DNA of 64,000 bases from Eledone cirrhosa (taxonomy: Eukaryota), in contig OZ024745.1 in NCBI GenBank assembly GCA_964016885.1, forward strand, positions 67,580,001 through 67,644,000. Direction: 5' to 3'. Shown in pieces: positions 26,645-62,030 of the stretch. The notes under the pieces are model-generated. The model was not told the origin of the DNA, ran no database searches, and worked only from the letters and a program-made list of their open reading frames with translations. Within the stretch, counting starts at the first letter, position 1. Every line of letters starts with the position of its first letter. The position numbers were made by a program, and so were the translations under genes.

Positions 26645-28860
26645 CTATAGCATATTTAAGTCAGTGTGTGTATATATAGCACATGTAAGTCAGTGTGTGT
26701 ATATATATATATATAGCACATTTAAGTCAGTGTGTGTATATATATAGCAAATTTAAGTCTGGCACACAGACTTAAATGTGCTATACATACACATACTTTG
26801 TCTTAAATGTGCTATACATACACATACTTTGTCTTAAATGTGCTATATATATACACATACTTTGTCTTAAATGTCCTATATATACACATACTGACTTAAA
26901 TGTGCTATATATATACACATACTGACATAAATGTGCTATATATATACATACCTTGTCTTAAATGTCCTATATATGCAAACACTGACATAAATGTGCTATA
27001 TATATACACACACTGACTTAAATATGCTATATATATACACATACTGACTTAAATATGCTATATATATACACACAATGACTTAAATGTGCTATATATATAC
27101 ACACACACTGACTTAAATATGCTATATATATACACATACTGACTTACATATGCTATATATATACACACACTGACTTAAATGTGCTATATATACACACACT
27201 GACTTAAATATGCTATATATATACACATACTGACTTAAATATGCTATATATATACACACACTGACTTAAATGTGCTATATATACACACACTGACTTAAAT
27301 GTGCTATATATATACACACACTGACTTAAATGTGCTATATATATACACACACTGACTTAAATGTGCTATATATATACACACACTGACTTAAATGTGCTAT
27401 ATATACACACACTGACTTAAATATGCTATATATATACACATACTGACTTAAATATGCTATATATATACACACACTGACTTAAATGTGCTATATATATACA
27501 CACACACTGACTTAAATATGCTATATATATACACATACTGACTTACATATGCTATATATATACACACACTGACTTAAATGTGCTATATATACACACACTG
27601 ACTTAAATATGCTATATATATACAAATACTGACTTAAATATGCTATATATATACACACACTGACTTAAATGTGCTATATATACACACACTGACTTAAATG
27701 TGCTATATATATACACACACTGACTTAAATGTGCTATATATATACACACACTGACTTAAATGTGCTATATATATACACACACTGACTTAAATGTGCTATA
27801 TATACACACACTGACTTAAATGTGCTATATATACACACACTGACTTAAATATGCTATATATACACACACTGACTTAAATGTGCTATATATACACATACTG
27901 ACTTAAATATGCTATATATATACACACACTGACTTAAATGTGCTATATATATACACACACTGACTTAAATGTGCTATATATATACACACACTGACTTAAA
28001 TGTGCTATATATACACACACTGACTTAAATGTGCTATATATACACACACTGACTTAAATATGCTATATATACACATACTGACTTAAATGTGCTATATATA
28101 CACATACTGACTTAAATATGCTATATATATACACACACTGACTTAAATGTGCTATATATATACACACACTGACTTAAATGTGCTATATATACACACACTG
28201 ACTTAAATGTGCTATATATACACACACTGACTTAAATATGCTATATATACACACACTGACTTAAATGTGCTATATATATACACACACACACACTGACTTA
28301 AATGTGCTATATATACACATACTGACTTAAATATGCTATATATATACACACACTGACTTAAATGTGCTATATTTATACACACACTGACTTAAATATGCTA
28401 TATATATACACACACTGACTTAAATGTGCTATATATACACACACTGACTTAAATGTGCTATATATATACACATACTGACTTAAATATGCTATATATACAC
28501 ACACTGGCTTAAATATGCTATATATATACACACACTGACTTAAATATGCTATATTTATACACACACTGACTTAAATATGCTATATACACACACTGACTTA
28601 AATATGCTATGTACACACACTGACTTAAATATGCTATATTTACACACACTGACTTAAATGTTCTATATATACACACACTGACTTAAATATGCTATATATA
28701 TATATACACACACTGACTTAAATATGCTATATATACACACTGACTTAAATATGCTATATATATATACACATACTGACTTAAATGTTCTATATATACACAC
28801 ACTGACTTAAATATGCTATATTTACACACACTGACTTAAATGTTCTATATATACACACAC
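26645..28860. repeat. Minisatellite, ~30-32-bp unit ACTGACTTAAATRTGCTATA(TA)nCACAC, roughly 70 copies
   Basis: Direct tandem array 26765-28860 preceded by 3-4 inverted units at 26645-26760. Confidence 0.95.
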
Positions 28861-31300: not shown

Positions 31301-32154
31301 CTTACACTGTAAAGTGATCTTGTAGGTGTCAGGACAAAAAGCTCCCAGCATACACTGTAAATACGGTTGGCATCAGGAAGGGCATCCAGCTGTAGAAACC
31401 AAGCCAGAAACAGTTTTGTATGAACAATGGTGGTGATGGTAACGGTTGTGGTGATTGTGATGAGGAGGAGGAGGAGGGGGGGAGCAGGGAGAGGGCCCTG
31501 TGATACTTTAACATAGCTTTTATTACTCTTACAAATAAATATGAACTGTGGATTTATATAATATCGACAACAATGTTTAATAAATGAAACATTAGAATTA
31601 ATAATTTCACCATATGTTACTAACTTTTCATCAATATCAGAATTATATCAGATTTTATCAGAATAACATAATAAGCAAACAGTGTTTGTGACTGACTTAA
31701 TTAAAATTACAGATCAAAGTTGAAATCTATAAAATGTAATGAACACCAGATATTGAAAGAAATGTCTGCTATCAGATTTGAACTACAACTTTAAACAAAC
31801 AATGTTCAATTAGTTACAGTCTTTATATTTTATTTTATTTCAAGTATTTTCCTTTGCAAGTGTGTGGGTTCAGTAAAGTTGTCGATGGTGGCGGTGTAAA
31901 TGTGTGGGGTGGAATGTGGTGAGGTGGAGAGTGGGGAAGGGTATGTAGGTTGGAAAAAGCATTGAGTTGTATGATTTCTGTTTAAATGTTTCCTATGTAA
32001 ATATCAATAATTGGTGAAACCTGCACTAAAAAATTGTCTTTAAAAACATACAGTTGCTTATTCTGATAAATATATAAAATACTACAGAGATCACTCAAAA
32101 GTGAGGATGAAATGTTAGCATTTACTATTGCTTTTCGTAATAGTCTCAGGTGCT

Positions 32155-32960
32155 CAACACCACCAGCACTGGGCTGCACCAACACTATGTTACACCAACG
32201 CTGGGTTATACCAGCAGTGGGCTACACCAACACTGTGTTACACCAACACTGGGTTATACCAGCAGTGGGCTACACCAACACTGTGTTACACCAACACTGG
32301 GTTATACCAACACTGTTACACCAACACCGTGTTACACCAACACAGGGCTACACCAACACTGTGTTACATCAACACTGGGTTATACCAACACCATGTTACA
32401 CCAACACCATGTTACACCAACACCATGTTACACAACACTGGGCTACACCGACACTGGCTACACCAACACCGTGTTACATCAACACTGGGTTATACCAACA
32501 TCATGTTACACCAACACCATGTTACACAACACTGGGCTACACCAACACTGTGTTACACCAACACTGGGTTACACCAACACTGTGTTACACCAACACTATG
32601 TTACACCAACACTGCGTTACACCAACACCGGGCTACACCAACACTGGGCTACACCAACACTATGTTACACCAACAATGTGTTACACCAACACTATGTTAC
32701 ACCAACACTATGTTACACCAACACTGTTACACCAACACTGGGTTATACCAACACCGTGTTACACTAACACTGAGTTATACCAACACTGTGTTACACCAGT
32801 ACTATGTTACACCAACACTGTGTTACACCAACACTGGGCTACACCAACACTGTTACACCAACACTGTGTTACACCAACACCGTGTTACACCAACACTGTG
32901 TTACACCAACACTATGTTCCACCAACACTATGTTACATTAACACTATGTTACACCTGTAT
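32155..32960. repeat. Minisatellite, 16-bp unit CCAACACTRKGTTACA, about 50 copies
   Basis: Tandem 14-16-bp variants; the ORFs in all three plus frames are a consequence of the unit. Confidence 0.95.
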
Positions 32961-33032
32961 TGGGCTGTACCTAAGTATGAAAGGTAAAGTTGACTTTAAT
33001 GGGATTTATGGCAAAGCACAGGACCAACGATG

Positions 33033-46200: not shown

Positions 46201-49200
46201 CGGAAACATTGTTTCCTCGGTCCGATTTGACGAAAGTCGATCGATCCAAAAAAAAAAAAAAATTGTTCAATGTTGGAATGGTGTGCATCTATCTTTCTTT
46301 TTTTTATTCTGTTACTGGTCTCAGTCAGTGAAGGCACCGTGGCCTAGTGGTTAGAGTATTTGGCTCTTTATTTCTCATTGCTCCAGATCATTCAGTTGCA
46401 ACGACATTGGTGCCAAGCTGTATCAGCCTATGCTTTTCACTTTGACAATATATGTGGTGTGGAGAGAAAAGACTGGCATGCTTGAGTGACTGTTGTAGTC
46501 TTCTACAAAAACACCTTGCCCTAGCTCATGTTTTAGAGAGGAACTATCCAGAGGCAGTCATGACTGAGGTGAGAGTGAGTCTCGTGTCACTGGTGTCAGT
46601 CATATGACTGAGGCCATGCTGTAACACTGCTTTGAAAGATTTTTAGTTAATACTACCAAACACAGGACTTTTTTTTTAAAGTCTTGTATTTTATCTTTAA
46701 TTATCATGATTTAAATATACTTTTTTGTTGTTGTTTTTTAACTTTCTATAGGATTGTTTGCAAATGAAGCTGCCAAACTCTATTCCTACATGCATTTCCG
46801 ACCAGCCGTTCGACTGCAGGATAAACCTGTACTAGAAAGAGCGAATATGGATAAATCATTGGACTTCATGGATATTATTGAAGATGATATTCCCAAGGGT
46901 AAAAAACACTTTAACTATTTTGATATCAAGCCTTCATAAACTTCTGGTTCTATGATGCAAAACTGTTTGTTTTAAAGTGTTTGTATTTATCTAAAAATTT
47001 CATTATAATTTGATAAAAGAAACTTTAACCCTTTAGCATTTACATTACTCTGTCAAATGTCATGTTTATCTATTTACATTATTTTGAGTTAATCATACTC
47101 AAGAGGGTTATCAACTATATTTGTTTGTAATTTTGTTAATTTTCTATGTGCAGACTTGAAATTTTGTCAGTAGATGTTTGAATATCAATAATTTACAATT
47201 ATCTACTTTTACCTGTTTTTTTTTTTGTTAAATTTCACTTTCATGGGCAGGTGAAATTAATTAACAGGTGTAAAAGTAATAACTTTATGGATAAACACAA
47301 ACATTTACACTTTATAAGCCTTACTTATTAAGTTTGTTACAAAAATTATCCAACAATGACCTAGATGTTGACTTCCAACAATTTTAGCACTTTTCACGAA
47401 AGGTGAATTAATTTAAAATACAGGTGTAATCTGTACAATGTTTTAGTTTTTCTCTACATTCGAAGCAAATATTTTCATTGAAAAAAGTATAAAACCCTTT
47501 TACCAGTCAAAATAATATTGGCAAAATACTCTTACACAATGTGCAGGGTAGATTTTCATAACAGAATGTGCCCAATATATAAGTTCCCTTAACAGGTGTG
47601 ATACATTGTACTACAGATGTATGTATTTATGAGGGCAAGATCCTCTGCTAGAAGCACCAAAGAAAAAAAACGGTCAAAATATGTGTCTGTATTGAGAGTG
47701 AAAAGGTTCAGTCAGAGACCATACAACATCGTATCCCAATCCATTTTTTTCTCTATTGATTATGTTTTTTCCCCTTGTAAATATCAAAGTTTGCACAGTT
47801 GCCTGTGTCCAATTGACAGAGTTCCCGCACCTTAATGCCCCATTTGGTGGGTTTAGCTGGCATATACTGTCTGAAATGTACCCTAATTTTATAATTGCTT
47901 CATCAACACAGATTTTTTCCAGGTATATATACAGTTTAAAATTTTTCACAATATTTCAATTAATGATCGAACTTTATAGAAAGGATTGTAATTTGATTTA
48001 TTTCTACCGGGGTGCATTTGAAGTATCGACCAGGTGCAGATACTGATTTAATTTCAAATACCATGTTTTTGGCATAATACTTGATATATAAGAGTCACTA
48101 AACCATATATCAGTACTCCAGTAATTCCACAGTCTTGGAAATTGCTTTATTCCAAACATTATATTCATTGAAAAAATGCTCAAATTTCCGCAGCATCTGT
48201 CAATCGCTTTTCCCCAATTTGAAATTTTTTGTTGGGCATATTGATTTGTCTCTTTTGCCACAACTTCAAAGAAAGTTTGTGGCAAAAACAAAAAGAAATA
48301 ATCCAGTGCTTTAGCATCAGGAGGTAATGTGTGTTGTGGACCAATATTTTCAATAAAATTGGGAACATGTATTGGTGTCGTGTTTTTCAACCATGTTGCT
48401 GTAACATTTTCAATGGCGTCCTGGGGATCTTTTTCACTTTCACTATGAAAGCAACAATTGTCATCAGATGAAAATTCAGAAATATGTAATTGCTGGCCTT
48501 GTGCCAAAAGTAGAAACAATTATTATGTGTAGCCAGTTTAGAATAGATACACCACATTGCTGCATGTCATAGGAGACAACTAAAAGGGTTAATGCAGGGA
48601 AGAACATCTAGTAAAAAATATTGTCTCAAAAAGGACTATGATGATTATGAAGCCTATTACGGGGTCAGCAATGCTAACTCGTGATTTAGCAAGGGGGAAA
48701 TGGCCTTAAAACGCTTGTTGTAATGGTTACTAATATATTCAGTGAGCATTTTGAACTGGGGCCGACATTTCACATTTGATCTGAGCCAATTATCAGCTTT
48801 GGGAGATCCACATTTCACATCTGGCTTGGGGCTGTTTACCTTCTCTACACAGATCTGGCCATCCTTTCTATGCTGAGTCAGTGAAAGCATCCATGTCTAA
48901 AGTATCTTTGGTTCTCAAAGTAATAATCTCTTGTACAGAATAAAGCATGATTAAAATACTGATGTTTCTTTGTCAAGACAGAACGATGCTTAATAAATGT
49001 GAAACTGCAGTGAAGGCTGTAAAGAAAGAAAATAAGAATGGTTCAGTAGATGTGTGAAGTATTGCTTAGAGACAGGAAGACAAACAATGAATCATTCAGA
49101 ATGATGGGAATAGTGTCAGTGGTGAATGTTGGGTTGGGTATTTAGGAAGGATGAAAATGACTAGATGAAAGAAGTGATGAATATTGTGAAAAGAAATGGA

Positions 49201-50284: not shown

Positions 50285-53200
50285 TGTGGGTATGGTGTGG
50301 CGTGCGGTGGCCGGAAGCGGGGGAGTGCTTGGCCGGAAGGATGCTCGACCGGAAGGGCCAGCAGATCAGCCTCTCTCTAGTGGTGACCAGCAATGGTGTG
50401 GACGCGAGTTTTGGCAGCTCCCGGTGTTAAGGAGTTGGACGCACGTGGAAGAGGAGAAACCAGCAGTGGGATTTAGCAGCGCCTATGAAAAGCGGTAAGT
50501 GAGATAGCTTTTTCTAACCACAAGCTATTTCGGCACTGGAAACAGATCTGATTTTTAAAAAAAAAAAAAAAAAAAGCTACTGGAAAAACAGAGAGGAGTC
50601 TGTTGTTTTTTTTTATCACGTACCGCAAGACAAATTAGAAGATTGCGACGAGACTACGAACAAGCGAAGCGATCAGGGCATTTACCGGTGAAGGTGATGT
50701 TGTCGCTTGGCTGCGAAAAGTCCGGCTGGTCACAAGCTTGCAGAAGATAGAAGATGTGGCTGGCCTCATGGCACTGTACCTCAAGGGGGACGCGTTGGTA
50801 CTCTTCCTTGAGTTGGACGAACACAGCCAAAGAGATGTGCAAAAGATTGAGAGGCGCATGATGGAAGCGTTCGCTTTCGCTAAGCTGGCAAGAATTAGAT
50901 GGAACGGTGAACGCGTTGACATTTTCGCAGCGGAAATACGACGATTGGCCATGTTGGCTGGATATCAGGTGGAATGCGAACGCACGGTGCGGTTGGCGTT
51001 CATAAATGGATTTCCAGACGACATAGCGGTGAAACTGCAGCAAGTCCCGGGTTACAAAGAAATGGAGATGCGTTCATTGGTGGAACAAGCCCGGATCATA
51101 GCAGAAGATGCCAAGAAGAGTGTCGCGGTGATAGCAACTACAGAGGCTCAAGACAGCTGGCAGCGAAATGGTGAAAGGGAGGCAACCACGGCACGCGGTC
51201 GCCCGCGAACGTTTAGAGGTTGCTGTTTTTGGTGCCAGGGCCCACACATGGCTAGAGTCAAGGCCGGAAATAATATGCTACCGGTGTAAGCGACCAGGCC
51301 ACATCGCTACTAACTGCGACCAGGGAAACGATCCAAGGGGAACTACTGCGCCGGTAGTTGCCCCTTACGAGTAGAGGCGCTGCCCGTGGTGGAAGTCTTC
51401 GTGAGGGGAAAGCCACAGCGAGCCCTTGTGGACACGGGCTGTACGACGACACTGGTGACCGCGGGGGTGGCGCAGAGGGAAGAGCAGTGTAAGGGCAGTC
51501 GACGGCAGGAAAATTGAATGCCGAGGTCACAGCGAGATGGAAATAGCGGTACGGGGAAGGAAAATAAGGCTTTCTGCCACCGTAGTAGACAGCGTGGTGG
51601 ATGGGATCAGCATGGTTATGGACATGGACGCAATTGGCCGTCTAGGAGGCGTCACAGTGAACAACGTCGCTGTGTCGTTTGGCACCGCTGCATCGGTATG
51701 CGCTGTGAGTACGCGACAGGAGAACCAGAAGGCCCACGAGGAGAAATACCCCGCTTACACTGTACAGGACAAAGACTTCAAGGCCGTGTTCGATGGGCAG
51801 CGATAGGTTGTTGAGTGGCACTGGAAGGGAGAACCACCAACACTGAAGACCAAAGTGGGCTGCTATCAACACACATTGAAGGGAAACATTAGGGGCGAGA
51901 GGTAGAGAGGTGGATTGAGGAGGGCATACTGCTTCCCTGGAAAGAGGACGTGAAGTGCGGAGTATTGCCGTTAATGGCGGTGGCGCAACCCACGAAGAAC
52001 AAGGTGAGGCTGGTGCTGGACTTTCGGGAGCTGAACGAGCACGTGTCATGCCACACGGGTGGCGAGGTCACGGATGTCTGTGGGGAAACCCTGCGTGAGT
52101 GGAGACGCATGACGGAGGGTTCAGCAATCGTAGATCTAAAGTCGGCATACTTGCAATTGCATATAGATGAGAAGCTCTAGCAGTATCAGCTGGTCAGGTA
52201 TAAGGGCCGGACATATTGCCTGACCAGGCTCGGTTTCGGGCTGAGCTCCGCACCGAAGATCATGGCGGTGGTCCTCAAGACCATTCTGGGAAAGGCCGAC
52301 AAGATGAAGAGGGCCACTAACTCCTACATTGACGACATCCTAGTGGACGACTCTGGCGTCTCGGCGGCGGAAGTCACGAGCCATTTACAGGGGTATGGAC
52401 TGGCTGCGAAGCCGTCAGAAGCGTTGGAGGGGGGAGTCGCGCTGGGACTTATGGTACGGCGAGACAGGACGGACGTCTTGCTATTCCAGAGGGGAAATGA
52501 AGTTCCAGAACTGGGCCGAAGTATGAGTAGGCGGGAGCTTTTCTTGGTGTGTAGAAAGTTGGTGGGTCACTACCCGATTGCTGGGTGGCTCCGGACAGCA
52601 TGCAGCTATGTCAAGAGACGAGCGGGAGGAGCGACAGAGTGGCAGAGAGGACGGTGGCCATGATGCAGGAGATCGTGGGGAGGGTGAAGGCCGACGACCC
52701 AGTGCGGGGACGCTGGTATGTTCCCAAATCACAGAGCAGGACCGTATGGTGCGATGCCAGCAGCATAGCACTGGGTGTCACATTGGAGATAGGAGGTGTT
52801 GAGGTCGAGGATGCAGCCTGGCTTAGGAAGAAGGACGACTGCAACCACATCAATGTGGCCGAACTGGACGCAGTGTTGAGAGGGGTGAACCTCGCCCTGA
52901 GGTGGAGACTGTGCACCATCGAGATATACACCGACTCGGCTACTGTACTCGGATGGGTGAGATTAGTGCTCACCAGTGAGAAGAGAGTGCGAACGAGAGG
53001 GGCGGCGGAGATGCTGATAAAGCGCCGCCTGGGAACTTTAGGAGAGCTGGCCACCGAGTTCGACCTGAGCCTGAGCGTAGTTTTCGTGCCCTCAGAGAAA
53101 AATTGGGACGTCTTAACTAGGGTGAAGAAAGCCTGGATGGAAGCGCCGGAGGGGGTAGAAGATGAGATAGCTGCCGTGTGTCGGCTGACCGAGTCGGATC

Positions 53201-54405
53201 TGAAAGAGTTGCATGACATGCACCACATGGAAGTGGATAGGAACCTGTTCCTAGCCAGGAGAATCGACTCGGACGTTAACAGACACAGTGTTCAAAGGGT
53301 GGTTAGAGGCTGCGTCCGATGTCAGTCCATTGATCCGGCCCCGGGTGTGCACGAAATGGGAAGCCTCCCGGTGAATCGCGACTGGAAGCGATTGGCGGTG
53401 GATGTAACGCACTACCGACAGGGAACGTACTTCTCGATGGTCGACTGTGGACCAGGACAGATGGCGATATGGAGGGAGATGAAGACTGGAACGGCCGAGG
53501 AAATCATGCGGATGTTGAGAGAAGTGTTCTTGGAGCGGGACCCTGTGGACGAACTGCTGATGGACAACAGCGCAGCGTTCTGCTTGGAGGCGCTGAGGGA
53601 GATGCTCGATGGATGGAAGGTGGACCGTTTCTTCAGAGCAGCGCATAGGCTGAGCGGGAATGGAATTGTGGAGAGACACCACCGGACGATCACGGCAATG
53701 GCGGAGCGGGGCCATATCTCACCAATGGAGGCAGTGTTCTGGTACAACATGTCCCCTCGGGTGGGACAGGTCGAGGAATCGGTGCCACACAGAGCAGTAT
53801 TCAGATACGAGTGGCGGCACCCGTGAACGCCACCACAACGGCCAGTGGGGAGAGAGAGTGCATTCGTGCAGGTGGGCGAAGTCTGGGTTAAGCCCCCAGA
53901 TGCACGTTGCACATCTCAATGGGGAAGGGGAACGGTGACGGCCGTAAATTCCCAGAATAATGTATCCGTGGACGGAGTACCACGTCATTTCCTGGATGTC
54001 CGTAGAATCACTGTGTCAACGGACTCCAAGGAAAAGGAAACCCAAAGTGCCGCCCCAACACTGCGGAGATCGCAAAGAAGTCGCAAACCACCAACCTGGA
54101 CAGCAGACTTTCATATGCAGAAGGACGAGGGGGGAAATTGATCCTTGAGATCAGGGGGGCGTGTGAGTATAGTGTGGCGTGCGGTGGCCGGAAGCGGGGG
54201 AGTGCTCGACCGGAAGGGTGCTTGACCGGAAGGATGCTCGACCGGAAGGGCCAGCAGATCGGCCTCTCTCTAGTGGTGACCAGCAACGGTGTGGATGCGA
54301 GTTTTGGCAGCTCCTGGTGTTAAGGAGTTGAACACACGTGGAAGAGGAGAAACCAGCAGTGGGATTTAGCGGCGCCTATGAAAAGCGGTAAGTGAGATAA
54401 CCACA
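50285..54405 (+). mobile_element. Full-length degenerate Ty3/Gypsy LTR retrotransposon (4.1 kb)
   Basis: LTRs 50285-50522 and 54162-54405 (TG...CA); 5-bp TSD TATCT (50280-50284, 54406-54410); PPT AGGGGGGCG; gag with CCHC knuckles, protease (ALVDTG), RT (DLKSAY, YIDD), RNase H (WCDAS), integrase (HHCC, catalytic core), C-terminal RRSQR..KPP; multiple stops and frameshifts. Confidence 0.95.
50640..54141 (+). pseudogene. Disrupted gag-pol of the Gypsy element
   Basis: ORF pieces 50738-51289, 51168-51374, 51537-51806, 51950-52180, 52262-52663, 52585-53826, 53845-54141 in shifting frames. Confidence 0.9.
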
Positions 54406-56042
54406 TATCTGTCTAGCTGTGTGTATCTGTTCAGCTGTGTCCAGCTGTCAAAAATTATTGTTAGCTTAAGAACCCTGAAAATAAAACCTGTTCAAGTATC
54501 TTTCTTTGCTCGAAACATAACCAACTTGATTCATCCTCTAGATCAGAGTCTATTGCTACATTCAAACCCTACTTTTTACAGTGTATTTTAAGTTCTTAGA
54601 TGATGAAACTAAACCCACTGTAAAAGAATTTCGGCATAACATGAATACTAATGAAAATTTCACTGAAGCACCGTACTAAGTAAAAACAATCAAAATGAAT
54701 CTTATACTTGTATGAAGTTAAAATCTATCTAGATTGCATTGCAGACTTCCTGGATATTAAGGGGCCAGTTTAGGAGATTGTTGAACTGGCATACCAGACT
54801 GGGTTTAATGATACAAATAAAGAATATGTAGTGGGGTTACTTCAATCACAGGGTAAAGAAATATCTATTGAGGATCTCATGGAGAAGGAACATCACTGTA
54901 TTGAAGAAGATGATAATGATTTCTGCTATAGACACAAGGTCAGTAATTTGGAGGGAGGGGAAAGTCAATTAAATCAACCCAGTGCATTACTGGTGCTTTT
55001 ATTTTATTTTATTGACCCTGCCAGGATGAAAGGCAAAGCTAACCTCAGTTTCAATCAGTCACACACCACAAGAGATATCGGAAATGATTGAGTCAAGCCA
55101 ACACACTCATAGAATTACTGTGAGTGACGGTGAGGCTAAGGCACTGTAACAATCAAGTACCCTCAAGAGCATCACCTGACACCTTGGTAAGGTGAGCGCC
55201 GCTAATGATGACAAGAACTTTGCTGTCAGTGGCCCAGTTCCATCAAATATCTCGAACACCACAGACTGAAAAAAAATAGTATTTTAGGATTTTATTTGAT
55301 TTTGCACAATAATTTCACTCAACAATATTTATTCTGTGGGACAGACAACATATTGTATAACCCTCATATTTTGGACCTCCATTTGTTCCTTCTACGAGTT
55401 TTCCACCTTTATAATCAACAGAACAGCTTGCTCGTGAAATGTGGCTGAGCAATCTACAGGCATGTGTGCCCTGGATTCAATGTGACTGTGTGACAAAGCT
55501 GGCCCTTTGAATTACAGGTAGAACTGTTTTTTTGTTGTTTTTTTTTTCAGCTGAGTTATCTGAAACAAGGTGAGATAATGTCTTACTCAATGACATAATG
55601 GACCACCGAAAATCGAACTCACGACTTTATGATCGTGTACCAAACACTCTAACCACTAAACCACGCACCATTACAGGATAGACGAGACAAACACATAGAA
55701 ATTATACTTATAACTATCATTAATCCATTTACTGGGCCATTAAAAATACAAGTTAAAAAGCTGACGGTTTTTTTTTTTGCAACTACTGAGATCCATCAGT
55801 TTTAGTGTGTAATGTCCACTATTAACTTTAAGAATTATTGGTAATTAAATTAATATATATATATACAATTAAATAAATATATATATATACTAAATAAAAT
55901 TTGTTATATATATATAATCTGAGTTTTTCGAATATTAATAATAACATTCGATTCGTTTGCAATTATGCAAACAAGCCTCAATTTTATAGCCATGTCAGTA
56001 GAATGAACACTTCATTCTTGCTCTTGTGTTGGCATGCGAACA

Positions 56043-56092
56043 GAACTGCAGACACTAATGTTTCTGGGTATCACCCTTCATCAGTACAGCTC
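56043..56092 (-). ncRNA. Minimal type I hammerhead ribozyme
   Basis: Minus strand: GAGCTGTA-CTGATGA-AGGGTGATACCCA-GAAA-CATTAGTG-TC-TGCAGTTC; 8-bp stem I, near-palindromic stem III, GUC; A.A mismatch at the base of stem II. Confidence 0.75.
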
Positions 56093-56383
56093 ACTGTTGG
56101 AACGAATCGAATGTTATTAATATTCGAAAAACTCAGATTATATTTATTGTATTCAGCCATGTAGAACGAAATTTTCTTTTATATATATATATATATATAT
56201 GTAGGAGGTGAGTTTTATTATAGTACAATAAAGCAATGCAGATATCGGATAAGTAGCACTCTACAGTTTGTAGGACTGGAGTATAAATAATATATAAGAT
56301 CAAAAGATGGTTAAAAGAGTTCCATGTATGATTTAAAACTGCCCTATTCACAAGTGTTTTTTAACCTTCATATGATGTCTCCC

Positions 56384-56454: not shown

Positions 56455-56517
56455 CATGGAACTCTTTTAACCATCTTTTGATCTTATATATATATATATA
56501 TAGTTTTAATATAGATG

Positions 56518-56568
56518 AGATTCTACAGGACTAGAACTGTTTCATTCATTAGAAATCATCAGGAATCT
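56518..56568 (-). ncRNA. Type I hammerhead ribozyme, possibly degenerate
   Basis: Minus strand: AGATTC-CTGATGA-TTTCTAATGAAT-GAAA-CAG(TTCTAGTC)CTG-TA-GAATCT; U.U mismatch at the base of stem II. Confidence 0.6.
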
Positions 56569-57163
56569 GGGTATCAAAAAATAAAAATGGTATTTATAGG
56601 TCTCTACAAGTGGTAGGAGAAGGTGGGGAGTGGGATGGGTGTAGGTCATTGGTTGATAGAAAAGGGAATTCATTAAAAGCTAATTCTACAAAGCTATAGT
56701 TTATTTTTATTTATTTATGTTTTTAGAGTAACGAGGGCAGACAGAATTCTATAAACAAGTTCCGGATGGCATACCATTCCTTGTCATTAAGTTTCCCTTA
56801 AGCTAACAGATGTCTATAAGATCAGTGGGGGGTCAGTCATGGTCGATAGAATTAAAGAAAAGGGAGATTCTTTAAAAGCTAAAATCATTAAGGTTCTACT
56901 AAGTGACAAAGGTTTAGAGAATTCTGTACATAGATTCAAAATACTGAGTGCATATCTTACAATTATCTTCGAACTTCTCTTAAACTAATCAACTATATGC
57001 CAAAAATCAACAGACACATTCACAAAAAAACATACTCACTCACACACTCACGCGCAACCATAAACACACATACACATACACATATACACACATAAAAACA
57101 CACACACATATATATAAATATATTTATATACATACACATACATACACACATACATATATATAT

Positions 57164-57212
<49 letters not shown>

Positions 57213-57364
57213 TATATACATACACACACACATACATATATATACACACACACACACATATATACACATATAAATACACTCACACACATACATACAAACA
57301 CAAATATACATGTGTATACATATACACAGAAATACACATAGATATATATACATATATATACAGA

Positions 57365-57396
<32 letters not shown>

Positions 57397-57424
57397 CATA
57401 TATATACATACACATATATATATA

Positions 57425-57491
<67 letters not shown>

Positions 57492-57529
57492 AAAAACACA
57501 TACACACACATATATACATATACACACAA

Positions 57530-57639
<110 letters not shown>

Positions 57640-57704
57640 ATATATAGATATATATATATACATACGTCGTGTGGACGCGTTCTTGAGACTAGTAAAATGA
57701 GGTA

Positions 57705-57794
57705 TCCTCTTGATAAGTCGGCAGACCTCGCAGGGACTCTATATCTTTATGATATATTGTTTTTGTTTATGCCACGAAACTACGTAGTCGAGGA
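57705..57794 (+). ncRNA. Minimal type I hammerhead ribozyme, U3-A8 core variant (copy 1)
   Basis: Stem I TCCTC/GAGGA; core TTGATAA; stem II GT(C)GGCA...TGCCAC with long extension; GAAA; palindromic stem III ACTACGTAGT; GUC cleavage triplet ending at 57789. Confidence 0.72.
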
Positions 57795-58299
57795 ATTTAG
57801 GAGCAGTTTAGGTATGATACATTTTATTACTAATTATATCTAAATGTTTCTTCTCTCTTCATAATGTATTTTTAACTCTGATACTGGTTCAGTCTAGTTC
57901 AACTGAATTGGTCTGTCCCAGTCATTCATTGAGCAACATCGGTGAAGTTGGCACCCTTAACTCACAGTTGGGTGCGGATGCATTCATGTATATATGTGTA
58001 TGTCCGCATGTATCTGTGTGTTTCTAAATATATTGTTAATAACTCCCTCTGGTCGAGCAATCTTTGAAGTGTGGGGACAGCTGGAAAGCTTCCATTACTC
58101 ATACTTCTCGCCTTCTTCACCACCTCTTCTACGGCCTCGATATAAATACCCCCTCCGCCTCCGTGGTATTTTCATCGGGGTTATAAGAGGCTTAGCTCTG
58201 TTTCTCGACCGTTATATCGCGTGACTATCTCCCCCTCCGCCTTTTGGGATTCTTTCTCACGTCGTGTGGACGCGTTCTTGAGACTAGTAAAATGAGGTA

Positions 58300-58389
58300 T
58301 CCTCTTGATAAGTCGGCAGACCTCGCAGGGACTCTATATCTTTATGATATATTGTTTTTGTTTATGCCACGAAACTACGTAGTCGAGGA
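58300..58389 (+). ncRNA. Minimal type I hammerhead ribozyme, U3-A8 core variant (copy 2)
   Basis: Identical to 57705-57794. Confidence 0.72.
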
Positions 58390-58526
58390 ATTTAGGAGCA
58401 GTTTAGGTATGATACATTTTATTACTAATTATATCTAAATGTTTCTTCTCTCTTCATAATATATATATATATATATATATACATAAACAAACATATACAT
58501 ATACATACACACACACACACATACAT

Positions 58527-58577
<51 letters not shown>

Positions 58578-58603
58578 TATACACATATATAAGGAAAAAG
58601 CAC

Positions 58604-58693
<90 letters not shown>

Positions 58694-58702
58694 TATATAC
58701 AC

Positions 58703-58737
<35 letters not shown>

Positions 58738-58785
58738 TACACCATTCATACATATATTCATATATATATACATACACACACATAT

Positions 58786-58866
<81 letters not shown>

Positions 58867-58979
58867 TATATATACATACACATACATACACACATACACA
58901 TATATATATACACACACACACTCATATACATACACATATACACACACACATGCACATACATACATATATACACACAAAT

Positions 58980-59024
<45 letters not shown>

Positions 59025-59103
59025 TATATATATATATACACATATATACACACATATATACACAAATATATATATTTATATATAAAAATATACACACATA
59101 TAT

Positions 59104-61985
59104 ATTTTGCAGCAGGTCAAGGGAGGTAATTCTGGCCGGTGTTAGGGCAGTCTTTCCCGCACAATTTTTTTTTTTTTTTTTTTTGCCGCATCCGTTTGTC
59201 TGAGGCTGGGTCTGGTATGCAAGGATTGTTTCCTGGGTGTTATTTTGCAGCGCCTGCCCGCCGGGGTGTTAAGACTTTTTGCAGGGAGGTCCAGTGTACT
59301 GTTTCACTCTTCATCCTTAACCCATCTGAAGAAGGATATTTTTAAGCGATGTGTACAACTTATCGCCGTTTCAGCTCTGCTGTTGATGAGCTCGTGGGGT
59401 GCAGTTATGATGTGATAGAGCTCCATGAGGCAAAGATCGCATTTCCTCTTGAAGTTGTACGGTGCAGCCCTGCCGACAATCTCCCAGTGCGTGGAGAAGC
59501 TGATGTTTAAGTCCTTTAGTGATGTGATGTAGTCCGCGAGCGAAGTGGAGTGCCTTAGTTTTCTATTTGTGAAAGAGTGGAGATGTGTTCGAAACCTAAT
59601 TTTGAACGGGCCGGAGGTAGCCCCTATATAATGTTTAACGCTATTGTGGCTAGTAATAGTGCATCTATATATAACCCTATCAGTCAAGCAGTATCCTCTA
59701 AGGGGGCAGCGTCCTCTGTCGCGGCAGTTGCAATTTCTGTCGCGGTTCCGTCTATTTCCCACGGTAAGGCTATCATTGTTGCTGCCTACGTTGTTTCCTA
59801 CGCTACCGCAGCTGTCCTTAGTACCATTACAACCCACAGCACGCGGGGAGGTGCGATTGTTATTCCGCACGTCATGTTCTGCATGTTCCCCAGTCATTTC
59901 GCGGTTATTCTGGTTGCGTCTGCGGATGCCGTTGCCAACACTATTGGATGCTGCCGGGGAGTTGTTAAGGCCGATATAGTTATTGTCAGGTGTAGGTGCG
60001 TCTGTGACGAGGTGCTGTGTCTTGGTGATCTTACTGTGGTTCGTTGTTCCTATAATGTCTGTTAGGTTAGGGGTAGTAGAGAAGGATATTTTATATTGTT
60101 CCTATTAAGAATTTTTCTAGACCTATGGTTGGGCGGGAAGTTCTTCTCTAAGGCTTCGAAGAACATCCGGGGTATGTTGGAGGCCACACTCCGAGAGTAG
60201 GGAGGGTGGAACCATAGGACGTTACGGTGGTGATTACGTGTCCTTGTACTTTTGCTACGGGTGGTTCCATCTAAGTGACCACTCTTATGTGTGTTAATGC
60301 GTAGTCGCCCGTTCGGTGCCCCTTTCATTTTATGCTCGGGTGCACTCTTTCTACCTCTTCCATGTTTATGTACACGAAGATGTTGGTTGGAAGGCGTTGG
60401 TAGTAGGCCGTCGCCTTTGTTGGTTTTGTAATAGGGGAATAGTTTGAGTAATCTACAGTGTTCACCGTCGCCGGGGTCGTGATCTTTGGTGCGGTTATCT
60501 ATTCTGTTATATCCGACTTCAACGAGGTCGCCGCGTGATCGGTTATAGGTATGGCTTACTATAACGTTAGTTTTATGAGGGGGTGGTTTCTAGAGCTAGC
60601 GTTAGGGATGTAGGAAATTCCTCGGTTAAAGCCGGCGCTTATCAGGGCCTTATTGTAGTAATCTGCCGCTTGGTTGAAGATATCCTCATTGGCGGATAGC
60701 CTCGAGATTCTATGTGAGATACTATAGACTATGGAGTTGAGAGTCTGCTTAGGGTGGTTGGAGGCATAATTAATATAAGAGAGGCACTCTCCAGGCTTAT
60801 GGTATGGCTTGTATAAGCCCGTACTCAACTCCAGGGTCACGTCCAGGAAGTTGACAACCCTGTGGTTGAGGTCCATAGTTACGGATAGGCCGTATGACTT
60901 AAAGAACCTGTGTATATGTTTGTTAAGGTTCTCTATCCTACGGGGGCTATGGTTCCTAACGGTAAACAGGGCGTCGTCCCTATATACACCTCCTTGTAGG
61001 GCCGGTATTTCTTCCCTAAGCTTATGTAGGAGGTATATCCCGACCAGGTCGTTGCTTGCGCTGAGTCACTGGACCCCATCGTGACATCGAAGTTATCAGG
61101 ACGGTTGGTTCTGGTCCAGTGGGAGTCTTCGAACTGGATAATGGTTCTACGTGCCGCTAGAATTATGTCTATTTCTTTTTTAGTGAGGCTAGTGTTAGAT
61201 CTAGCTAAGATAAGTGCCTTATTTAAGAGTATGGGGGAGATAGAGGCGTAGTAACTATCTATATCAAACTGGATGAATTTCAGGGTGGCTTTATCCGGCA
61301 ACTCGGTAAACCAATTTATGACCTGGTCGGTGTTGCCCCAGAGGCAGACCTTAGCCTTTCTATTAAGCTCCAGTAGTAGTCTGTCGGGGATCACTTTACT
61401 AATCTTACCTATATCTGATGTAGAGGGGCATATTAGTCTAATAGAGGGGCTTTCATTAAAGTCATATTTGTGATCCTTAAGAGAGAATTTAGGCGTCAGA
61501 GGGACGTACGGGTTAGTGTACTTTTCTATTTCTAAGCTGGTGACTATATGCTTCCCTACTCTATTTATGTCATTTAAGGTACTAGAGGGTGTCTTTTTGT
61601 AGTCTTTGTGTAGTTCCTTATAGATGAATTTTTTATACTCACTCGCGTCCATCTTGTACAGCTTTTTGGTTTTGTCGGAGGTGACGAAGAGGTGCGGATC
61701 ATTCTTGATCTTAGTTATTAGTGTATCAAGGGACGATAAGAATGGATTGCTGCATTGGTGTTTCTTTCTGAGCTTAACGTTTTTGATCATTTTCAGCAGG
61801 TCCTCTTCAAAGGAGTCCAGTAAGGTGTTGTGCGGTGGGTTTCGGTATGTTTTGAAACCATACTTCTCTTTGGGTTCAGGAAGGTTACGGGTGTTCTTAT
61901 CCAGGTGGTAGGCCTTCCATCTGACTCTCCGTATAAACGAATTAGTAGCGTCTATAAGCAGTTTAAGGTAGGTTTTTGCTTTCCC
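59104..61985 (-). mobile_element. Penelope-like retroelement (RT + GIY-YIG endonuclease), frameshifted, 5'-truncated
   Basis: RT motifs [19 protein letters not shown] (60973-60984), VNFLDVTL, YHKP..INYASNHP; GIY-YIG VIYRC...YIGATSGPFKIRFRTH...CDLC..E; flanked by (TA)n-rich tracts. Confidence 0.92.
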
Positions 61986-61987
61986 AC

Positions 61988-62030
61988 GTATATATATATA
62001 TATGTATGTATATATATATATATATATATG

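Follow-up and report, generated by a model that had tools for sequence, protein, structure and literature searches.

A young family of probable hammerhead retrozymes with Penelope-type insertion ends in Eledone cirrhosa

The 64,000-nucleotide window of Eledone cirrhosa DNA analysed here (G000:C5:67580001-67644000, from a 3.0-Gb assembly) contains two identical hammerhead motifs of variant core, which had been predicted from the sequence to belong to a retrozyme-like unit. They are part of one copy of a young, dispersed and protein-free family with a 595-bp repeat unit. The window element is probably a retrozyme copy without long terminal repeats (LTRs), written into DNA by a Hydra-clade Penelope enzyme from a cut and circularised 595-nt RNA. 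That a Penelope enzyme moves the family is very likely, and this enzyme is likely to be of the Hydra clade. The original prediction of a young, non-autonomous, Penelope-mobilised and retrozyme-like element is supported by fixed ends, by the joint use of two such ends (sites A and B), by the lack of an open reading frame (ORF) and by TA targets. Positions are those of the window unless stated otherwise.

The repeat geometry in the window is exactly as originally described: positions 57664-57865 and 58259-58460 are identical over 202 bp, with a period of 595. The motifs were likewise correctly placed, with TCCTCTTGATAA at 57705 and 58300, the core TTGATAA at 57710 and 58305, GAAA-CTACGTAG-TC-GAGGA at 57776 and 58371, and TATAAATA at 58141. 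The predicted scissile C is 57789 in one hammerhead and 58384 in the other. One correction concerns the edges of the twin repeats: the 3' edge is fixed, and the 5' edge is an ordinary truncation point. With 1.3 units in one arm, the window copy has direct repeats only as the overlap within a 5'-truncated tandem, and they are not LTRs. The region is non-coding, as had been proposed (longest ATG-initiated ORF of the concatemer, 76 aa; GC content, 42%). Two exact copies of the 595-bp unit occur at G000:C1:174.6 Mb. Mis-assembly, considered in the original prediction, was checked in public data: the unit and its head-to-tail joint (58258>57664) are present in contigs from four public runs of three studies, and the TA-joined ends in three of four independent runs. 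An assembly error is therefore excluded. A 620-nt wrap-around contig from one run of unrecorded type was not used as evidence of a circle, because tandem DNA yields an identical contig; among the data sets listed as containing the unit, none is RNA.

The exact core pattern has 7,204 matches genome-wide against 0 for the reversed control, which excludes occurrence of the motif by chance. The best matches to the unit are 98-100% identical and are dispersed over many contigs. Extrapolation from the first 100 matches, which come from about 51 insertions, gives roughly 3,700 insertions in the genome. Head-to-tail units of a few hundred bp, up to about five per arm and without LTRs, each contain a type I hammerhead motif, and tandems bear two or more complete ribozyme motifs. 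Internal tandem units, which continue past site B in unit sequence, number 2,166. Unit periods range from 588 to 597. A sister family with a period of 508 bp is about 74% identical to the unit; the two differ by an insert of 82-87 nt in the 595-bp family, with a copy of the word CCCCTCCGCC at each end (unit 487-497 and 568-578; ~58150 and ~58231 in the window). About 135 loci were sampled from the two families in total. The first set comprised 74 loci (23 best matches to the unit, 50 found by the core pattern on C1 and one other), and the replication set 40 more out of 47 listed beyond 54 Mb; of the other seven, one belonged to the first set already and six were omitted. The genome search for copies that had been proposed thus returned thousands, and at none of the 49 sampled single-arm insertions was a reverse transcriptase (RT) ORF of a Penelope-like element (PLE) joined on the 5' side; 41 of these 49 adjoin TA repeats there. 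Two near-identical two-armed insertions lie 2.5 kb apart at G000:C1:19.62 Mb (L054/L057) with matching flanks and represent a local segmental duplication.

The copies have their 3' ends at two fixed places, A (unit 202-206) and B (unit 370-377), and (TA)n follows 108 of the 114 3' ends scored. Among 66 head-to-head insertions, 62 combine one end at A with the other at B, one is A+A and three are unresolved. The first set gave 38 A+B of 41, with one A+A and two having one end elsewhere (both members of a segmental twin pair are included in this set, and one end was taken from an overlapping locus). The replication set gave 24 of 25, and its exception, L236, scripted as A+A, consists of two adjacent A+B insertions according to the arm table. 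Single arms end at A (28 of 49), at B (17) or elsewhere (4). Fixed 3' ends, variable 5' ends and inversions are the marks of dispersal by retrotransposition. PLEs are marked by an adjoining copy that is inverted and 5'-truncated and by a tail on just one side (PMC8557442; PMC3846280); in them, the tail is the stretch between two internal RT start sites and both target strands are cut and extended (PMC11167929). The end pattern of the present family is this known Penelope tail rule with a lengthened tail, 165-169 nt instead of 30-40.

Either arm of a head-to-head insertion may be the longer one (34 versus 24), 13 of 58 such insertions have more than one unit in both arms, and overlaps of 1-12 nt are present at 44 of 59 arm junctions. 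Formation of the second arm as a fold-back copy of the first was rejected, the breakpoints being unmatched (5/59 within 15 nt; 3.1 expected). The ribozyme cut site is crossed at least twice by 53 of 110 arms, and five times by two of them. Of 274 junction motifs, 269 are exact, and bases are added in none. The cut site shows no enrichment of 5' breakpoints (2/111 within unit 120-134; 2.8 expected), and a suspected clustering of 5' ends just past it did not hold (9/111 in 127-160, p 0.18). A cluster of 36 of the 111 breakpoints at unit 460-545 was not accepted as a transcription start, being due in part to sampling bias and in part to TA-like microhomology.

The nature of the template was approached through the distribution of substitutions among the units of single insertions. 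Changes carried by the monomer itself should appear in all units, while errors of the RT and later mutations should be confined to one unit. The comparison took in 104 insertions, of which 96 had overlapping coverage; the ends and a TA/GT-like stretch were masked, and arms below 93% identity or shorter than 100 nt and one twin were dropped. Of the private substitutions, 25 were found in all units of the insertion (9 A>G, 2 T>C, from nine loci), six in some units (no A>G) and 179 in one unit (7 A>G, 26 T>C). The share of A>G is higher in the all-unit than in the single-unit class (Fisher p 1e-5). Ten of the 25 all-unit substitutions, including four A>G, span both inverted arms. The difference was first seen in the initial set; the replication set alone gave 3/11 shared against 1/76 single-unit A>G (p 0.006). 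A strand-polarised excess of A>G is a mark of adenosine-to-inosine (A-to-I) editing of RNA, and the excess on one strand suggests such editing here. A 23-nt deletion has only two matches in the genome, both in units of one insertion. Since the shared changes are rich in A>G and the truncations ignore the cut site, it appears that one edited monomer was read repeatedly, probably as a circle. We regard the repeated reading of one monomer as likely, and lean towards a covalent circle as its form: shared marks, exact junctions and breakpoint data, taken together, speak for a closed circle rather than for an uncut multimer or for jumps on a linear monomer. Family-wide, T>C exceeds A>G among the single-unit changes on the RNA strand (26 versus 7), a bias to which wobble errors of the RT may contribute.

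The ribozyme has the expected core features: a U3-A8 Watson-Crick pair, G10.1-C11.1, A15.1-U16.1 and GUC as the NUH triplet. The isolated 90-nt motif is predicted to fold into a three-way junction, in which stem I has 5 bp, stem II consists of a 6-bp proximal part with one bulged C followed by a long extension, and stem III is self-complementary. The original prediction that U3-A8 is a functional swap agrees with published natural covariation that is active in vitro (PMC3088659) and with a second report (PMC4209133), in which U3-A8 is common among Schistosoma PLEs. The original prediction also held that standard CUGANGA searches miss this swap. An Rfam scan of 55-64 kb returned no hammerhead match, including none for two canonical C3-G8 hammerheads nearby, so the scan is uninformative and the swap is not established as the cause. 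Of 44 core and stem positions, 42 are identical to the sister monomer, one of the two exceptions being a gap in the alignment; for the other positions the figure is 340 of 460 (p 7e-4). All 20 sister motifs found with a non-ribozyme probe retain TTGATAA. Judged from these alignments, the ribozyme appears to be under selection between the families. In 14 aligned motifs, 94% of cells pair, compared with 33-57% when the alignment is slid; the 14 rows were mostly picked by the core pattern. The genome pattern search found neither a short-stem-II form nor a C3-G8 twin of the family ribozyme. The dimer that had been proposed is predicted to be better than two monomeric folds by about 9 kcal/mol: two monomeric folds cost 17-18 kcal/mol and the dimeric fold about 9, both above the free ensemble and computed without tertiary contacts. 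The predicted 595-nt circle is highly structured (minimum free energy z -5.5, 60 shuffles). A possible remnant of an intron was noted downstream of the ribozyme.

These observations can be assembled into a possible pathway. A locus with at least two hammerheads would be transcribed, the TATA-like word being a candidate promoter. Two ribozymes would then pair through the palindromic stem III and excise the monomer, which a host ligase could close by analogy with other animal retrozymes; ligation by host enzymes has been shown for those of axolotl and mussel (PMC7229834). A Penelope protein would cut both (TA)n strands and start reverse transcription at A on one and at B on the other, consistent with the observed ends. 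Each enzyme would pass the junction up to five times, as the observed architecture suggests, and finally two cDNAs would join by microhomology, or a single cDNA would anneal back to the TA tract. The PLE enzyme is predicted to be a dimer (PMC11167929), and we infer that two-ended priming on one RNA could be the work of such a dimer. A more detailed proposal, which we put forward only tentatively, is that a dimer of the PLE RT-endonuclease grips one A-to-I-edited circle at two sites 165 nt apart and primes from each (TA)n strand, with both active sites rounding the same circle, and that the parasite hijacks the enzyme by mimicking its partner's ribozyme-plus-tail region in spacing and fold, not in sequence. 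If so, the one-sided PLE tail, long unexplained, would be the footprint of an asymmetric dimer.

Several results weigh against a cut, edited and circularised template that is moved by a Penelope enzyme. Only nine sites make up the A>G excess; predicted pairing is not enriched at them (mean 0.56 vs 0.65), and the 3:1 ratio of A>G to T>C in the shared class of the replication set is non-significant (p 0.16). Variants scored as private may be rare subfamily alleles, about 100 of some 3,700 insertions having been sampled, and the divergence within an insertion equals or exceeds that from the nearest other insertion (medians 0.52% vs 0.36%), a comparison confounded by age. As to the ribozyme, the covariation score of the 14 aligned motifs equals that of shuffles (243/500), only one pair changes on both sides, and the changes in stem II are one-sided wobble swaps. 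The covariation of positions 3 and 8 that had been proposed as a check failed to appear: in a search on position 3 only, all 18 family copies with a change there keep A8. The family being fixed for U3-A8, this comparison is uninformative within it. The predicted cost of the active fold is 2 kcal/mol in the isolated motif, 7-10 in context (one monomeric ribozyme) and 8.3 within the circle, since it has to compete with a GAGG/CCTC hairpin upstream and with another hairpin downstream. This folding fits a ribozyme that would work only as a dimer, possibly with protein assistance, and would be off in the monomer, behaviour that has been reported for PLE hammerheads; it also fits a poor ribozyme. 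PLE hammerheads have been reported to cleave weakly, cleavage is dispensable for insertion in vitro (PMC11167929), and eight of nine frog retrozyme dimers were without cleavage (bioRxiv 10.64898/2026.07.22.740005). With regard to the enzyme, blastn found no homology between the unit and any PLE pseudo-LTR (pLTR), and a shuffled-alignment test of ten comparisons reached at best z ~3, to one sister PLE family, with z 0.3-1.9 to the family of the neighbouring PLE in the window.

The template could instead be an uncut linear multimer transcribed from tandem loci, with the hammerhead inactive or irrelevant and the Penelope enzyme starting internally at A and B. The disfavoured active fold would suit such a template, uncut RNA is the dominant substrate of an Anolis PLE in vitro (PMC11167929), and exact junctions without stops at the cut site are compatible with it too. 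On an uncut multimer, however, editing should mark single units, whereas the A>G excess occurs only among all-unit changes (9/25 versus 7/179 and 0/6). Donor arrays already bearing shared marks would merely shift the monomer step one generation back, and the core has been kept against 26% divergence elsewhere; this explanation is considered unlikely. If the ribozyme does cut, the RT might still use a linear monomer and jump from its 5' end to the 3' end of the same molecule, which would account for shared variants and multi-unit arms without ligation. Jumps of this kind often leave extra bases, as is known from work on R2. No bases are added or lost at the 274 junction motifs, and 5' breakpoints are not in excess at the cut site, so that a jumping template appears decidedly unlikely.

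The original prediction had also allowed for the tandem pLTR of a truncated Penelope element, and the copies might accordingly be pLTR fragments of an autonomous element whose ORF-bearing copies escaped sampling. Every end feature is indeed of PLE type, and the roughly 135 loci read are not exhaustive. This reading is nevertheless disfavoured by the 49 single arms, none of which adjoins a PLE ORF, and by the failure to find, among the sampled loci, any ORF with RT and GIY-YIG flanked by the repeat. The head-to-tail units without ORF, up to about five per arm, the many internal units that continue beyond site B and the missing short-stem ribozyme version point the same way, and we hold it to be very unlikely. 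An origin of the family from a lost pLTR is likely and is compatible with copying from a circularised retrozyme RNA. A satellite arising at the DNA level, a local duplication or a mis-assembly might be suspected from window repeats that are identical and lie within low-complexity DNA; it is refuted by dispersal over contigs, strand-polarised fixed 3' ends, 5' truncations and inversions, and by the joint and ends found in independent runs.

The Penelope copy at 59.1-62 kb had been proposed as a possible driver. It has three frame changes, has lost its first 36 residues together with the start, and ends before a 3' hammerhead. Being broken, it cannot drive mobilisation and is a bystander that shares the microsatellite. 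This neighbouring copy has a main arm without 3' pLTR, and a 10-nt inverted stub at its 5' end (61979-61988) matches site A of its own family. That family is abundant and young, with 39,583 candidates including relatives and open frames up to 979 aa. It shows the Hydra-clade features RWK, DKT, CxCX5C, a C-terminal GIY-YIG domain and (TA)n insertion, the motifs being read by eye, without a tree, and the Pfam match to GIY-YIG being weak (E 0.092). Its full-length copies have their own U3-A8 hammerhead, UUGAGAA, with a short stem II and a palindromic stem III. Its ends lie 61 nt past the cut (A) and 164 nt further (B), and they occur as A+B in all seven loci with both ends matched, out of 14 examined. 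In the retrozyme unit, A is 76-80 nt from the cut and B 165-169 nt from A, a geometry that fits this family best; another Hydra-type family has a tail of 107 nt. Without clear homology, the driver is inferred at the clade level only; it could be the neighbour's family or its close sister, an assignment that we consider possible but less than probable. Six other Hydra-type copies adjoining family loci are old and have no related pLTR, and at 16 loci of other U3-A8 families similarity to the unit was found only in TA/GT repeats. The short-stem U3-A8 pattern has 3,566 matches genome-wide against 61 for the control, in at least five families. At L181-L196 (G000:C1), at least five short-stem U3-A8 families were seen, several with a Hydra-type endonuclease and with tails of ~107-165 nt. 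In the Hydra-type PLE at L101-L105, RT and endonuclease are separated by an exceptionally long insert, and a possible intron would run from the ribozyme cut site to just past site B.

The family resembles the described metazoan non-LTR retrozymes (PMC7229834; bioRxiv 10.64898/2026.07.22.740005) in tandem units that encode no protein and bear a single type I hammerhead, a GC content below 50%, dispersed monomers to multimers, co-occurrence with PLEs and a length within the reported 51-972 bp. It differs in the U3-A8 core and the 59-nt stem II, the preprint descriptors being canonical and minimal, and in a ribozyme predicted to be blocked in the circle, which is not so for most animal retrozymes. 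The available parts of these reports describe no counterpart to the paired fixed ends, the insertions with two arms or the A>G marks shared among units. For metazoan retrozymes, expression and circles have been demonstrated; for the present family they are predicted. With the EN+/Hydra-clade PLEs (PMC8557442; PMC11167929; PMC3846280) it shares (TA)n targeting, 5' truncation, an inverted adjacent copy, a tail at one end only, two internal RT starts and a hammerhead just upstream. Unlike PLEs, it has no ORF, the whole element is the repeat unit, and the tail is longer than the 30-40 nt known from them; Hydra-type PLEs of this genome have tails of 107-164 nt. PMC8557442 reports canonical hammerheads in Hydra elements, whereas several Hydra-type families here are U3-A8. 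The same core swap and a palindromic stem III suited to dimers occur in the U3-A8 variants already described (PMC3088659; Schistosoma Cercyon PLEs, PMC4209133). The Schistosoma matches are heterogeneous and mostly single, while the variant is fixed here in a homogeneous tandem family. The two ribozyme-bearing direct repeats about 600 nt apart recall plant LTR retrozymes superficially; these have a type III ribozyme, true LTRs, a primer-binding site and polypurine tract, a 4-bp target-site duplication and a Gypsy partner. A plant-type LTR retrozyme is excluded by the type I topology and the variable 5' edge, the repeats being an artefact of tandem truncation.

The features of the window copy and its immediate surroundings are listed in the following table.

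Table 1. Parts of the retrozyme copy and adjoining features in the window.
Feature	Positions	Strand	Remarks
Whole insertion	57664..58464	+	One arm with 1.3 tandem units, truncated at the 5' side and ending at site A; 801 nt (unit 1 to 206)
595-bp repeat unit	57664..58258	+	Unit positions 1-595
Type I hammerhead 1	57705..57794	+	Stem I TCCTC/GAGGA; core UUGAUAA (U3-A8, 57710-57716)
Hammerhead 1, long stem II	57717-57775	+	With bulged variable C
Hammerhead 1, 3' part		+	GAAA, palindromic stem III CTACGTAG, GUC triplet; predicted cut after 57789
Type I hammerhead 2	58300..58389	+	Identical to hammerhead 1; predicted cut after 58384
Predicted 595-nt monomer	57790..58384	+	Between the cut sites; prediction
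GAGG-TAT-CCTC hairpin	57699..57709	+	Competitor of stem I, predicted off-switch; also in sister family
Long hairpin	57790..57859	+	From cut site to site A; predicted in sister family too
Site A	57865..57869	+	Fixed 3' end (unit 202-206); real end of the window copy is the second occurrence, 58460-58464
Site B	58033..58040	+	Fixed 3' end (unit 370-377), 165-169 nt past A; 'tail' end
TATA-like word	58141..58148	+	Candidate promoter; TA-like junction hotspot; sister family has CATAAATA
(TA/CA)n target microsatellite, 5' side	57029..57663		
(TA/CA)n target microsatellite, 3' side	58461..59106		
Broken Penelope copy	59107..61988	-	Separate copy, Hydra-type family; RWK, DKT and CxCX5C motifs, C-terminal GIY-YIG

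Other elements were seen in the window and at family loci. A canonical C3-G8 type I hammerhead at 56500-56570 (minus strand; core at 56562) is preceded by a TATA-like word and has a short tail leading into (TA)n; it is likely the end of another PLE-type element. A mini element of ~290 bp at 55890-56190 (minus strand) has inverted ends and a canonical hammerhead with its core at 56084, and a palindromic element at 1197-1370, within TA-rich repeats, carries the same hammerhead-like motif on both strands. A further non-autonomous family, found at L005, L010, L022, L027, L035 and L108, consists of a small inverted element whose hammerhead has the core UUGAAAA (U3-A8) and whose two ends are both joined to TA. 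A long-stem-II hammerhead with canonical C3-G8 and a palindromic stem III lies at L125:749-840, and a related-looking C3-G8 long-stem family is also in the genome. The window further contains broken LTR-retroelement-like ORFs (50639-53826; Pfam DUF7047, RNase H-like), a DDE_Tnp_1_7 transposase fragment (48004-48519, minus strand), a 31-bp minisatellite array (26691-28200) and a 16-bp minisatellite array (32113-33018).

As a ribozyme alone or as a retrozyme alone, the family is unsurprising. Animal non-LTR retrozymes, their link to PLEs, U3-A8 cores and one-sided tails are already published, and tandem cDNA templated by a circle has already been proposed for metazoan retrozymes. In the literature examined, Penelope mobilisation of animal retrozymes through reverse transcription of RNA circles is proposed and not demonstrated. 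The literature searches, which covered main texts, returned nothing on cephalopod retrozymes, nor on animal retrozymes that insert with two ends or bear marks of editing. Within that literature no match was found for genomic evidence of two-ended, multi-round retrozyme copying, for tails of 100-170 nt or for a U3-A8 core common to a retrozyme and co-resident Hydra PLEs; the supplements of PMC8557442 and PMC7229834 may contain Hydra tail lengths or U3-A8 cases. More than 10,000 pattern matches suggest that this genome has a major class of U3-A8 hammerheads, one that searches with a descriptor fixed on CUGANGA would skip. The family provides a matched test system, with a 595-nt RNA, two predicted start sites and thousands of near-identical insertions bearing countable marks, and with a candidate partner family in the same genome that has long open frames, the same rare core and the same tail length.
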